A stretch of 64,000 bases of DNA. It comes from Spirochaetaceae bacterium. Lineage in GTDB: Bacteria; Spirochaetota; Spirochaetia; DSM-2461. Numbering within the stretch: the stretch's first letter is position 1; each line of letters opens with the position of its first letter. Position numbers: made by a program. The stretch is from the NCBI GenBank assembly GCA_965224705.1, contig OZ245056.1, forward strand, positions 2,144,001 through 2,208,000, read 5' to 3'. Below are positions 39,001-45,000 of this stretch, piece after piece.

Positions 39001-42000
39001 GCGAGTGCCAGCCTGCAAGTTGCTCCTTATTACAACAAACCAACACAGGAAGGACTTTTCCGGCACTATACTGCTATCGCTGATGCTATTGATTTACCTC
39101 TCGTTGTTTACAATATAAAAGGTAGGACAGGGGTCAACATCGAAACCTCAACACTATTAAGAATTGCTGCTCACCCGAATGTTGTTGCTGTCAAGGAGGC
39201 TTCTGGGGAACTGAGTCAGATGATGGATGTGCTGGAATCCAAACCTGGGAACTTTGCTGTTTTTTCAGGTGATGACAACATGGCCCTCCCCCTTACGTTG
39301 ATGGGAGGTGATGGTGTTATTTCCGTTGCATCGAACATTATCCCCAGGCAGATGAGTGAAATGATCAATGCCGCAATCAACGGTAAACTGGCTCAAGCCA
39401 GATCCATGCATTTTGAATTGCTCCCTCTCTTCAAAGCCATGTTTCTGGAAACAAACCCCATTCCAGTGAAGTATTGTCTTTCAAAGATGGGCATGATAGA
39501 ACCTATCTGGAGGCTTCCCCTCTGCCCTCCCATACATGATACAGTCAAGGAGCTTGATCGGATGCTGAAAAACATGAACCTGGGTTAACCGGCTTGTCGT
39601 CCGCCTCGTCAGGCCAACCTGTGCAGTATCATATTCACAAACCCCAATATATCCAGGGCAGGCAGCATTCTTCTTACAGAAATGCTGGAATAAGCAGCCA
39701 GAAAGTATTGCATGTCAACAACCCGAAAATTGTCCGTCACTCAATGTGCACCATAGGAGTCTGTCGGACTTTAAGACTTCGAGCCGTGAGGCGTAAGTCC
39801 GACAGACTCATAGAATACTGCCGGTAAGGGGTTCTTAACGGATTCAGATGTGACGGTCCCGGGTATAGACATGATAATGATATTTCCTGTACATTTTTCA
39901 GTGCAGTGATGATTGCAATTCATTCCATGTTTTCTAAGGAGGAAAATTGGGCGTAAAAGATATGCGGATCAATGAAGTTATTCGCGTTCCTGAAGTTAGA
40001 CTCATAAATCAGAATGGAGAACAGGCGGGTATTGTACCTGTTGCTGATGCCCTGGATATGGCCAGAGATCTGGGATTAGATCTGGTGGAGGTTTCACCAC
40101 AGGCGAAGCCGCCAGTTTGCAAAATACTGGATTATGGCAAGTACAAATACGAACTGGAAAAGAAATCCAGGGATCAGAAGAAGAAATCAAGTCAGGTGAA
40201 ACTGAAAGAAGTTCGTATGCAGCCTAAAATTGAGCAGCATGACATGGCGTTCAAGGCAAAGCATGTTCAAGAGTTCCTGGATCAGGGAAACAACGTCAAA
40301 GTAACTATCCGCTTTAGAGGACGTGAATTTGTACATACGGAGTTGGGTAAGAATAAACTTGATAGAATACTGGAAATCCTTAATGATGATTCATTTAAGG
40401 TCGACAGTCCTCCACGAATGGAGGGCCGTTTCATGAATATGATGCTCAGCCCGAAGTCAAAAAAATAGGCTGACAGAGTTGAGCTGAAGGAGAACAGGGT
40501 AAACACATGCCTAAATTTAAAACAAGAAAAAGTGCCGCCAGGCGTTTTAAGAAAACAGCTACCGGGAAGTTTAAGTATAAGAGTCAGGGTACTCGTCACA
40601 TCCTTACCAAGAAATCCCCGAAAAGGAAGCGGAATCTCAGACACAGGGTCGTTGTCAGTCAAACAGAAGTGCCTCGCTTGAAACGTATGCTGACCTACAT
40701 GTAAAAAACAGATATTCAGGAGATAATTATGCCAAGAGCAATTGACGGCACTCGCCGCAAAAACCGCCGAAAGAAAATACTTGACCAGGCAAAGGGTTAT
40801 TGGGGAAGACGCAGTAAACTCATGCGTACAGCAAAGGATGCAGTACGCAAAGCCGGTCAATATGCATACCGGGACCGCAAAGTTCGAAAGCGGGAATTCA
40901 GACGGTTATGGATTGCCCGGATTTCTGCTGCCACCCGAAGTGAAGGACTTTCGTATTCTCTGTTCATGAATGGTTTAAGTAAAGCTGGTATTGTGCTGAA
41001 CAGAAAAACTTTGTCAAATATGGCCATTGAGAGTCCGAGTTCATTTAAAGCCCTGGTGGAAACAGCCAGGAAAAGTCTCGAATAACAGGAGGAAGACCAT
41101 GATCAGTCTGGATCAAGTTCGACAATTGGAAACACGCATAAAAAAAATAGTTGATTTTGTAAAAGCATTGAGTGCGGAAAATGAGACGAATAAACGGCGG
41201 GTGGAGGAACTTGAAGCTGATTTGGATAAGCTGCGCAGTGAAGCGATGAAGCATCAGGCCGATGAGGAAAAGCTGGAGGCCAGCTTCCAGGGAGTCATTA
41301 ACATACTGGATGAGGTTGAAGAAACGACAGCAGGATTCGAGTCTCCAGTATCCGATGAAGAAGATACTGCAAATAATCTGCCGGAACCTGTGCTCGAAGA
41401 AACAGAAAAAACACCATTGGAATCTGATACTGAACAGATTTCAGAGGAAATTGCTGAAAACACAGGTGAAGATGATGAACAGTCCATGTTTGATATATTC
41501 TGATGGCTGGTATAAATCAACTCACAATAAAACTGCTTGGAACTTCTATCTCCATTCGGTCCCGTGAAGAACAGGATTATCTTAACCGGGTCTTACAGTA
41601 TCTTGAGAATAAGGTGGAAGAGACGAAAAAGCAGGTCAAAATAGACGATCCGCTTAAAATTGCCATTCTTACAAATGTATATATTATCGATGAATTGTTT
41701 CGAGCTGAGGGTCAGGATGATCATGACTCTTCAATCCCGGAGACTGAGTCAGAAGAGATGGAGCGTATCACATTAAAAATGATAACAGATATTGATGAGT
41801 TGATCGGAATGTAGCCGCCATTGTGATTGACTAAACTCAAATCAATCCTTACATTGTTTTAAATGCCATATCTTTCGAACAGTAGAAATATCAACGAATT
41901 TTATGAATCATACAAGAATATCGAGATATCCTTCACAAAAAATATCTATGAATCTCTTAAACTGGTCCATAATCAGATTTCTCTTAAGACCAAAGAAGGA

Positions 42001-45000
42001 CATAAATCCTGTATCCTGTATTCTTCCTCCTGTAGTGGTGCCAAGGTAATTCTTTCAATGTCAAATGATATGGTCCGGTATTTAAGGCGGCATAAAACGG
42101 TTTCGCTGCGGTACAGCTTCTATAAAGACTTCTCTAAAAATGACTTTTTCAGCTTCTTTGTTTCATGCAGTATTACTGACATCACTCAGTATGAAAACAA
42201 GACGGGATTTTACTTTGTTCAACTAGTGTTTACTCAGAGACCGCCAGATGATCTTATTCTGATCCTGGGCAGCCTGCTTGATGCAAAGAAGAATTCATCG
42301 AAAAGACGTGAAGAACGCATAATACTTGATCCTGAAGCATTAAGGCATTTAGAATTGACTACAAATCGTATCACCATTGTTATCGATGGTATCCCTCGGA
42401 ACTGTATATTAAGGGATCTATCATTTGGGGGTGTAAAGGCTATTATTCTCGGCAATCCCAAATATCTCATTGACAAGGAAGCTGTCGTTAATCTGACACT
42501 GACCAATAAATCTCCTATTTCAGTTAAAGGCAGGGTACTTCGTCATGAGCCAGTTGTTGGCCGGAGGGATCTTGTGGCGATTGTTGTACAGTTCAGCGAA
42601 GAAAATCTCTCCTTAGAATACAATATGATGATCAATGAATATCTTACCAGCTTTGGCAAGAAATCGAATTAGACTACGCATGACAGGTTGAAAACAAATG
42701 TTCATTCAGAATAAATATGGAATACACTCCGCTTCTAACCGATCTTTATGAACTGACGATGACTCAGGGCTACTTCCTAGAAAACAAGGATACCCCGGTT
42801 GTTTTTGAGATGTTTTTTCGCCGCCCCCCCTTTAATGGAGGGTTTTCTGTATTTGCAGGACTTGAAGAACTTCTAATCAGACTGGAATATCTAAGGTTTC
42901 GGGAAGAGGATCTTGTCTATCTTCGGAGCCTGGGTATTTTCAAGAATGAATTCCTTTCTTTTCTCCGACAGTATCAATTTTCCGGTGACCTCTACTCCAT
43001 GGATGAAGGCTCCATCGTTTTTCCCGGGGAACCAATTCTCCAGGTTCATACAACTATGATCGAGGCCCAGTTGATCGAAAGTCTCCTGCTGAATCAGGTG
43101 AATTTTCAAACCCTCATCGCAACAAAGGCCGCACGGATTTATAACGCTTCCGGTGAGGGGAAGATCCTGGAATTTGGTTTAAGGCGTGCCCAGGGAATTA
43201 ACGGTGCTCTTTCGGCCTCACGGGCTGCCTATATCGGTGGATGTTCTGCTACATCCAACACTCTGGCGGGTTTGAAGTATGGAATACCTGTATCGGGAAC
43301 AATGGCCCATTCATGGGTAATGGCTTTTGACAGTGAACTGGAAGCATTCAGGGCATACGCTGAAATATATCCCGATAAGACTGTGCTTCTTCTTGATACA
43401 TACGATACTTTGGGTAGTGGTATTAAAAATGCAATTATTGTAGGAAAGGAACTTAAAAAGAGGGGGAAGAACATTGGAGTTCGCCTTGATTCAGGAGATC
43501 TCCAGTATCTGAGTATCAAAGTCCGGGAAAAACTGGATGCGGCAGGCTTGGAAGATGCTTATATCTGTGCTTCCAATGACTTAACTGAAGAAATCATATG
43601 GCAGCTAAGAACGAATAATGCTCCGGTCGATATCTGGGGCATCGGTACCCAACTGGTCACAGGAGGGCCGGATGCGTCCCTCACCGGAGTGTATAAAATG
43701 ACAGCAAGACAGGTAGGAAACTCCCTGAAACCCGTCATCAAGCTTTCTAACAATCCCGAAAAGATCACCAATCCTGGTGTAAAACAGGTGTATCGATTCC
43801 AGGATGACCGGGGAGTATTCCTGGGAGATCTTATCTGTCTGGAGGATGAGAACATAGGTAAAGGTCATGCGATCAATTTCAATCATCCCATGTTTCGGAA
43901 CAGTTACTCCCTGCTGAAACAGTATGACTCATACGAACCACTTCTCAAGAAACGGATCAGTGGCGGTCGAATGAAGTCCACACCTCCCACACTGGAAGAG
44001 ATAAGGGGCAGGGTCATCGAAGGTATGCACAGGCTGGATGATTCCCATAAACGGTTATTGAATCCCCATATCTATAAAGTCTCTATTTCCAATAAACTCA
44101 GGGATCTCAAATTCAACCTTGTTGATGAACGTATGAATCAGGGTAATCGAAAACTGTGATGTAAGAGGCCCTGGCGAAGAATCCACTATGGTTGGGGCAA
44201 GTTCTATAAATGAAACCGGTAAGCTGTAAAACTCTGACTGATACTCTGAAACTGTTGTATGGGTGAAGAAATCGGAGTATAATCATCTCATGGAATATAG
44301 AAAATTAGGAAATACCTCCATTGAGGTGAGCAAAATATGCCTGGGCAGTATGACATGGGGTTGCCAAAACACAGAAAAAGATGCCCACGAGCAGATGGAT
44401 TATGCCTTCTCCCAGGGTGTGAACTTCATTGATACAGCAGAAATATACGCTGTACCACCGAGTGAGAAAACTTATGGCCTTACTGAACAATACATTGGCA
44501 ATTATCTTAAAAAACATCCTGAGTTGAGGAAAAACCTTGTACTGGCAACCAAAATGGCAGGTCCCGGGGCAGAGTACATACGGAACGGAGAAGGATTCAC
44601 ACCACCTGTCAACATTGAAAAAGCCGTACAGGGCAGTTTGAAACGACTTAAAACTGACTACATTGATCTGTATCAACTCCACTGGACTCAACGTATGACT
44701 CCCCGTTTTGGCGCCCTGGATTATCATGCGAACTGGTTCAAGCAGGATGATAAACTGGCTGAAACCCTTGGAACTCTGGGAAAGTTGAAAGAGAAAGGTT
44801 TGATTCGTGAAGTGGGATTATCCAATGAACATCCCTGGGGGGTTATGCATTGCCTGAGACTCCATGACCAGGACTCCCAAATTCCTCAGGTACAATCGGT
44901 ACAAAATGTCTATAATCTGGTCAGCAGGGTTGTTGATATAGCACTTGCAGAAGTACTGGTGAGAGAAAGTATCAGTCTGCTCCCATATTCTCCACTGGCG

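Follow-up and report, generated by a model that had tools for sequence, protein, structure and literature searches.

The window, a stretch of 64,000 nucleotides from the genome under study (G000, from a genus of marine spirochaetes), carries on its forward strand the infC-rpmI-rplT-zapB-zapA operon and the genes behind it. The first two open reading frames, at 39947..40468 and 40507..40704, were named from their translations, without a domain scan, and are presumably infC (IF-3), which heads the operon, and rpmI (L35). They are followed by rplT (L20; 40729..41085; PF00453, E 1e-43) and, 13 bp further on, by zapB (41099..41503; PF06005, E 4e-8), which overlaps zapA (41503..41814; PF05164, E 6e-12). 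Downstream lie a plzA-type gene with PilZN3 and PilZ domains (41863..42672; PF20424, E 7e-46; PF07238, E 6e-8) and pncB (42717..44159; NAPRTase domains). Among the loci mapped, G000 and G037 alone have pncB directly behind plzA; in both, the flagellin cluster has moved elsewhere.

6S RNA acts in many bacteria as a brake on the transcription enzyme, and its gene is expected to occupy about 170 to 200 nt behind zapA. The gap between the zapA stop and plzA (41815..41862) is 48 bp long, as the initial annotation had stated, and is too short to hold it. The gap region folded no better than shuffled sequence (z -0.06) and showed no long irregular rod. The 6S model RF00013 had no match in the window, and the covariance models R1 and R2 had none in the gap. 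Judged by its sequence, the gap appears to contain a sigma70-like plzA promoter and nothing else; the predicted promoter (TTGACT-17-TACATT, 41827..41855) matches the consensus and ends 7 bases before the ATG. Of 11 genus rows, 9 have a match to the motif, and so does G037, judged by eye; among rows bearing 6S it was matched in 11 of 17, and in the genera g3 and g6 it lies downstream of 6S. An RNA contig of run X1 spans zapA up to 41839 without plzA; such contigs show neither transcript ends nor levels.

The slot was visible in 12 of the 14 genomes of the genus and was empty in all 12; zapA was not found in the other two, G025 and G031. The zapA-plzA gaps ranged from 4 to 266 bp, a wider spread than the 20 to 110 bp first proposed for five congeners. 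At the lower end, the first in-frame plzA start of G035 lies 4 bp after zapA. At the upper end, the 266-bp gap of G032 is filled by a dispersed repeat with seven matches in that genome and two in G031. The 200-nt insert in this slot has a closing stem like that of 6S, but it was rejected as a dispersed repeat that receives no model score. The 233-bp rplT-zapB gap of G034, also considered as a 6S site, contained hairpins and had no R2 match. In G029, G032 and G033, zapB starts at a non-ATG codon, without a gap.

Metagenome relatives gave the same picture. Twenty-four loci with a ZapA 51 to 58% identical were retrieved; one stops at zapA and was left out, and the slot was empty in the remaining 23, which have downstream DNA. 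In the same scan, two loci of 30% identity bore 6S at 157 to 159 bits. Locus L165 (G305), excised on the wrong flank, was left out of the slot count, and L167 stops about 100 bp past zapA. A record named "Olavius algarvensis spirochete endosymbiont", with a ZapA of 51% identity, had no 6S behind zapA; the genus is partly animal-associated. The genus was monophyletic in an RpoD tree (support 100/100) and in a ZapA+PlzA tree (100/99).

Outside the genus, 19 of the 24 genomes of the family matched RF00013 (E<1e-6). The RNAs of the sister genera (g2 to g6) match the model, have the canonical fold and lie in the conserved slot. They share the closing stem, inner helix and central bubble of 6S, and 13 of 42 pairs show two-sided changes. 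In 18 of the 19 genomes the RNA begins a few bases past the zapA stop; the contig of G019 starts 118 bases upstream. The position between zapA and the PilZ gene that had been ascribed to the other genera stands on the zapA side in these 18 genomes but not throughout on the other, as g5 (G017, G019) has another gene between 6S and plzA. In the 17 6S-bearing family genomes with plzA directly next, the zapA-plzA spacing was 195 to 261 bp. The five negatives elsewhere in the family look like assembly gaps, because four assemblies (G013, G018, G020, G023) lack zapA and one (G004) lacks a plzA match.

To RF00013, no match was found in G000 at E<=10, and none in the 14 genus genomes except a partial one in G032 (E 0.66). 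The latter was rejected, as it sits between genes that we take, from their translations, to be araD-like and araA-like. R1 and R2 gave no real match in any of the 14 genomes, and R2 with its filters off gave none around the operon. R2 is a class-specific model that includes diverged G223 and Borrelia-like sequences, and it scored 37 to 63 bits on 6S of other classes. An R1 match in G029 (19.7 bits) was rejected as a palindromic hairpin between glycosidase-like and sulfatase-like genes that overlaps a stop codon. Whole-genome nhmmer searches of G000 (--max) with three profiles yielded best scores of only 10.4, 9.3 and 13.1 bits, and the best match falls within a 1.2-kb ORF. In the sensitivity control, the family profile scored 47 to 112 bits on 27 of 30 outgroup 6S loci of the class and about 0 bits on the other three; it exceeded 10.4 bits on 25 of 30 6S loci from other classes. 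A genome-wide rod scan of G000 returned 386 unspecific candidates, and none of 13 stretches tested with Rfam and R2 was 6S-like; scans by structure alone were dominated by repeats and by rods that arise by chance. Other housekeeping RNAs were kept: RNase P and SRP RNA were present in all four genus genomes tested and tmRNA in G000 and G036. The absence of 6S from G000 and its 13 congeners, as initially claimed, is thus borne out by RF00013, R1 and R2, and for G000 also by the three nhmmer profiles. Since the genus is one clade, its slot is empty wherever visible and more sensitive models find no copy elsewhere, the proposal that the RNA was removed from its slot in the founding lineage of the genus is also supported.

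Across the class, R2 found 6S in 78 of 151 Spirochaetia genomes, and 24 of 45 families had no match, in a strictly filtered search that evaluated no more than 17 candidates in each genome. The slot was empty in many other families too, and the genus is therefore not the lone exception to a near-universal RNA that it had been taken for. The ZapA+PlzA tree, built from 367 columns of two fast genes, showed six changes of 6S state, three of them forced by strong branches, and a single clade of 6S-less rows was rejected (p-AU 0.00019). 6S was lost independently at least three times in the class, and probably about six times. The loss in the genus is a real deletion and one of several, which makes the genus a new 6S-less lineage and not a unique oddity.

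Where 6S was retained, it stayed at the operon end. For 24 outgroup genomes the coordinates of both 6S and zapA are listed, and in all of them 6S lies directly behind zapA. Where zapA was lost, it is still found behind zapB or rplT, and it directly follows rplT in the f5 genomes, judged Borrelia-like by their size and gene order. 6S models can go blind, as the family profile did on 3 of 30 loci and RF00013 did on G223 and G135; the RNA of G223 folds into a canonical 6S rod (z -3.3) on which RF00013 is silent at E<=10. The caution that a strongly diverged 6S could escape the model was justified in this respect, but both missed copies are still in the slot. Because 6S is always found at the operon end, even when beyond Rfam recognition, a relocation would have no precedent in Spirochaetia. 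Used by itself, RF00013 gets the class wrong both ways, and since it misses true diverged copies the slot itself must be read.

RpoD region 4.2 did not vary among 11 sequences of the genus and 19 from the rest of the family, apart from a single position behind the basic patch that differs in a few of them. It was still basic in all 20 6S-less outgroups, a one-sided class-wide comparison without RpoD from 6S-bearing outgroups. A compensatory change in sigma70 regions 2 to 4 was rejected, as region 4 had no diagnostic column. Co-loss of 6S with relA/spoT or CarD was likewise rejected: relA/spoT was present in all seven genus genomes tested and a CarD-sized gene in all three, and both are equally common in 6S-bearing genomes. 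In family f44, 6S was kept in four of six genomes and relA in just one. These distributions lend no support to compensation by RelA or CarD. No DksA zinc finger turned up in G000.

We consider it probable that ssrS was deleted from its slot in the ancestor of the genus, as one of several losses in the class, with the plzA promoter left in place and no homologue elsewhere. The comparison of loci points to a deletion of about 150 to 190 bp at the 3' end of the operon, which would have run from the zapA stop to plzA's own sigma70-like promoter. Because that promoter was spared, plzA presumably kept its expression. Within the sensitivity of the models, no 6S homologue appears to remain elsewhere in the genome. 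6S RNA fine-tunes the sigma70 holoenzyme in stationary phase, and the likely reason for the loss is that it was dispensable; RelA/SpoT and CarD, whose genes are present, may do its work instead. The 6S-binding surface of sigma70 may have stayed unchanged because promoter recognition holds region 4.2 fixed. In E. coli, deletion of ssrS was described as unfavourable but not essential (in part of PMC8998176).

A different and rather unlikely reading is that 6S was lost and its place at RNA polymerase taken by an abundant RNA of other descent, like Ms1 in mycobacteria or CoRP in Corynebacterium. Sigma70 region 4.2 is still fit for RNA binding, and a section of PMC11077062 proposes one abundant polymerase-bound RNA per bacterial species and reports that CoRP was found only by RIP-seq after bioinformatics had failed. 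A model-free comparison of G000 with intergenic DNA of G036, however, gave no unexplained single-copy RNA-like element; it recovered tRNAs, tmRNA, the TPP riboswitch, the flagellin leader and mobile repeats. It covered 2.0 of about 3.4 Mb (59%, leaving 41%), and that part contains a flanking orthologue for 276 of the 534 unique intergenic stretches. Searches of the window and the 13 candidate stretches with all Rfam families gave no match of the Ms1 or CoRP type. Three candidate substitutes were rejected. The flagellin leader was detected by BLAST in 13 of 14 genus genomes and in none of 24 others, yet it has homologues in four 6S-bearing genera (g3 to g6). A 165-nt rod repeat, considered as a decoy RNA, was missing from G034, G029 and G033 and had no R2 match (five genomes searched, no positive), and a rod at C1:537346-537535 was found in none of five congeners, in a search without a positive control. 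The wider proposition that half of Spirochaetia, the genus included, swapped 6S for a new class of polymerase-binding RNA, a fourth beside 6S, Ms1 and CoRP that was gained or co-opted several times, we hold to be similarly doubtful. If it were true, the switch could be observed most clearly in this family, whose sister genera differ in having or lacking 6S but share one and the same sigma70 region 4.2.

It is quite improbable that a strongly diverged 6S relocated in the genus ancestor and became invisible to all models. Extreme divergence is known in the class, as in G223, unseen by RF00013, and Weissella 6S candidates were barely detected by covariance search (in the Weissella part of PMC8414754). 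Nevertheless, this account needs a relocation plus a divergence greater than that between orders, and every 6S position checked was the operon end, with the Weissella cases keeping their slot too. R2 found nothing in the 14 genomes or, unfiltered, around the operon. With a 2-Mb database, blastn recovered within-genus 6S pairs every time (104 of 104 trials), and the comparison with 59% of G036 brought up no such pair. That the gene was merely dropped from metagenome assemblies, as a structured RNA gene might be, can practically be dismissed. The genus assemblies are 71 to 95% complete, and such gaps seem to account for the missing locus in five genomes of the family, but in 12 genomes and 23 metagenome loci the junction is unbroken and the gap sequences differ. 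An X8 contig reads through the 48-bp gap without a difference; run X6 has the whole stretch, possibly as source.

According to the parts of two reviews that concern its distribution (PMC8414754, PMC9130861), almost every bacterium has 6S and the exception cited is the Actinobacteria, in the latter review as the sole one. The slot right behind zapA is that of beta- and gamma-proteobacteria, with the order zapB-zapA-ssrS, in which, according to the gene-order passage of PMC7641849, proteobacteria nearly always have ssrS; in contrast, 6S (SsrS, RF00013) is absent in about half of the Spirochaetia searched. Bb6S of Borrelia burgdorferi, which is up-regulated by RelBbu in the portion of PMC6041397 concerned, comes from the same class, and the Borrelia-like f5 genomes bear 6S at the same operon's 3' end. 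These genomes (1.0 to 1.8 Mb) kept 6S in eight of eight cases and lost zapAB from the slot, whereas the genus, with 2.5 to 4.9 Mb in its best assemblies, shows the reverse, so the loss does not track genome reduction.

Reduced endosymbionts lose noncoding RNAs, although the 6S passage of PMC4779614 does not report 6S loss. The genus resembles them in being partly animal-associated, but its genomes are not strongly reduced. Loss driven by genome reduction was rejected, as the genomes reach 4.9 Mb and RNase P, SRP RNA, tmRNA, the TPP riboswitch, relA/spoT and CarD are present. Within a single class, normal-sized genomes have cleanly and repeatedly deleted 6S, which tiny Borrelia-like genomes retain, and the RNA is far more dispensable in spirochaetes than commonly assumed. 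A further parallel is with the 6S-less Actinobacteria, likewise a lineage without a detectable 6S gene (relevant sections of PMC9130861 and PMC11077062). These have a known polymerase-binding replacement RNA, whereas none was found in the genus, in a comparison that covered 59% of one congener. In contrast to theirs, the spirochaete loss is recent, having occurred within a single family, is repeated and has 6S-bearing sister genera for comparison. The family thereby offers matched natural pairs, with the same sigma70 surface and with or without 6S, to probe what 6S does, and a direct test case for the proposal, in the cited section of PMC11077062, of one abundant polymerase-bound RNA per bacterium.

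The window carries the gene order infC-rpmI-rplT-zapB-zapA, followed after 48 bp by a plzA-type gene with PilZN3 and PilZ domains and then by pncB. The Rfam 6S RNA model, RF00013, found no match in the window or anywhere in the genome. In the genus, it matched 0 of 14 genomes apart from a single fragment (E 0.66), whereas across five other genera of the family 19 of 24 genomes matched at E < 1e-6, in agreement with the initial annotation, which had also given the 48-bp spacing measured here. The five negative genomes of the other genera lack a zapA or plzA match in the assembly, indicating that outside the genus 6S is present wherever the locus is assembled. 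In the 6S-bearing family genomes, the RNA starts a few bases past the zapA stop. The corresponding slot was assembled in 12 of the 14 genus genomes (zapA was not found in the G025 and G031 assemblies). The gaps, annotated as about 20 to 110 bp in congeners, range from 4 to 266 bp. The long gap of G032 is a dispersed repeat, and no 6S remnant was detected in the longer gaps of the genus. A contig from sequencing run X8 crosses the 48-bp gap without change; the whole stretch is also contained in run X6, which may be its source. Oceanispirochaeta belongs to the family, and the Olavius algarvensis spirochete endosymbiont carries a closely related ZapA.

The gap contains a TTGACT-17-TACATT motif ending 7 bases upstream of the plzA start. 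Of 11 genus rows, 9 gave a match to this motif, which is also visible in G037, the nearest relative. Downstream of intact 6S, a corresponding motif was matched in 9/10 rows of genus g3, 2/3 of g6 and 0/4 of g2 and g4. Its occurrence both in the genus gaps and behind intact 6S in g3 and g6 suggests that the deletion took the 6S RNA but spared plzA's own putative promoter, judged by its consensus match.

The region behind plzA also varies. In most family genomes (L054-L062), a flagellin cluster follows, often with one further conserved gene between; in the genome under study (window 42672-42717) and in G037, the cluster lies elsewhere and pncB follows instead. In G037, the plzA match ends past codon 33, and a short element in tandem repeats comes next, with pncB behind it (C1:2134021-2134119, L052), so this c-di-GMP receptor gene appears to be lost.

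A copy elsewhere was sought with a family profile and covariance model (R1) built from 19 family RNAs and with a class model (R2) built from 20 RNAs, diverged ones included. Three profiles run with nhmmer --max on the whole genome reached only 10.4, 9.3 and 13.1 bits at best, and the 13.1-bit place lies within a long ORF. The family profile scored 27 of 30 loci from other Spirochaetia families at 47 to 112 bits (3 at about 0) and 25/30 loci from other classes above 10.4 bits. Neither R1 nor R2 gave a real match in the 14 genus genomes, in 2.0 Mb of the relative G036, or with filters off around the operon at 12 loci; the sole R1 match, in G029, was rejected as a palindromic hairpin. RNase P and SRP RNAs are kept in 4/4 genus genomes tested and tmRNA in 2/2. 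Of 28 loci from metagenomes, 24 have a ZapA that is 51 to 58% identical, and these showed no 6S (one stops at zapA); two Oceanispirochaeta-like loci carried it and two Treponemataceae-like loci did not. Two metagenome loci without 6S, L416 and L417, have about 700 bp inserted between zapA and plzA; the insert is likely to be either a mobile element or a small gene.

The caution that a strongly diverged 6S could escape the model was justified in that RF00013 missed true copies in G135 and G223 and gave only 29 bits, below its cut-off, in G170 (L171 and L172 for G170 and G135; L168:2323-2499 for G223, whose RNA folds as a canonical rod). These RNAs merit addition to the Rfam seed. All of them nevertheless keep to the same end of the operon and follow rplT or zapB where zapA is gone, and zapA and 6S are adjacent in 24/24 outgroup genomes with both coordinates listed. 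A relocated and diverged 6S hidden in the genus would require extreme divergence plus relocation, seen in 0 cases among the genomes checked, and is quite improbable. Slightly less improbable, though still unlikely, is that an unrelated RNA replaced 6S. G036 is among the nearest distinct relatives of the genome (mean protein identity 65%), and 2.0 Mb of its roughly 3.4 Mb were compared with the non-coding DNA of the genome; the RNase P and SRP genes of G036 lie in the remaining 41%. This comparison, which by 104/104 trials would have recovered a pair of 6S RNAs from within one genus, yielded tRNAs, tmRNA, a TPP riboswitch and a flagellin leader as well as mobile repeats and small genes that had been missed, and nothing 6S-like in the 59% covered. 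The leader was the most promising candidate. By BLAST, it occurs in 13/14 genus genomes and 0/24 other family genomes, with covariation, but alignment revealed diverged homologues in g3, g4, g5 and g6. It is thus a family-wide cis leader and was rejected as a substitute. Plain loss of 6S in the genus is the reading we consider probable, and the proposed deletion in the ancestor of the genus is supported by a slot without 6S in 12/12 assembled genomes and by the models finding no copy elsewhere.

The flagellin leader (C1:271474-271689, minus strand, L361, outside the window) lies between two flagellin genes and is about 200 nt long. It has a TCTTTGA box and a three-way junction whose loop reads GACGCG; a hairpin with a GGA loop, of the CsrA-site type, stands ahead of the ribosome site. 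The box presumably resembles the rRNA boxA antiterminator. The leader has no Rfam match and is possibly a new RNA motif. A 165-nt element that has terminal inverted repeats and folds as a long rod is also present across the genome, in about 100 full-length copies (for example C1:2211909-2212073, L358). Together with other repeat families it takes up 152 kb of the 342 kb that are intergenic, and fragments lie near window positions 1581, 3261, 31747, 39755, 45335 and 50528. It is also abundant in G036 and was not found in G034, G029, G033, G016 or G002. A weak tRNA match on the minus strand at window 50371-50443 (33.6 bits, no ARAGORN call) probably reflects a partial tRNA at a site of integration.

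The absence described in the initial annotation is not unique to the genus. R2, run with strict filters and 17 candidates scored per genome, matched 78 of 151 Spirochaetia genomes in a nearly all-or-none pattern (21 families with and 24 of 45 without a match). Behind zapA in 30 loci spanning other families, 6S was present in 5 and absent in 24, and one locus ended too early. In family f7, plzA starts 1 to 3 bp past zapA, whereas the gene behind zapA overlaps it in f2; gene order, among other evidence, points to Treponemataceae as the probable identity of f2 and to Borreliaceae as that of f5. A ZapA+PlzA tree was drawn from 38 rows, after 15 of the 53 labelled loci had been omitted for a missing gene. 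In this tree a branch (91/87) sets the family apart from all other rows, and the genus is nested inside the family. The 6S label requires six changes, three of them forced by strong branches, and a single clade of 6S-less rows was rejected (p-AU 0.00019). The changes are best read as losses, because proteobacterial 6S occupies the same slot (PMC7641849).

6S loss does not track genome size, and relA/spoT presence shows no link with 6S in 151 Spirochaetia genomes (132 positive, with 7/7 genus genomes tested). Long RelA/SpoT was not found in most genomes searched of f44, f51, f70, f74 and f75 and in most of f2; f44 keeps 6S. A CarD-sized gene is present in 3/3 genus genomes tested. A DksA zinc finger is present in G034 and G036; in the genome under study (95% complete) none was found, and tblastn with the DksA-like protein of G036 gave no match. 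Sigma70 region 4.2, the surface bound by 6S (PMC3299989), is shared by 11 RpoD proteins of the genus and 19 from elsewhere in the family and is still basic in 20/20 6S-less outgroups. On the simplest reading, 6S would be a dispensable fine-tuner, and its gene, flanked by two units that each have signals of their own, could drop out with the neighbours unharmed. Protein regulators may compensate for the missing 6S.

Our literature search found no paper on 6S loss in Spirochaetia. Treponema may already be recorded as negative in Wehner et al. 2014 or its supplement; this would reduce the novelty of the class-wide part. Borrelia 6S RNA is documented (PMC4370689, PMC6041397). The literature places 6S in nearly all bacteria (PMC8414754) and names Actinobacteria as the one exception (PMC9130861). 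The surprise lies less in the genus than in the class Spirochaetia, from which 6S has disappeared several times.
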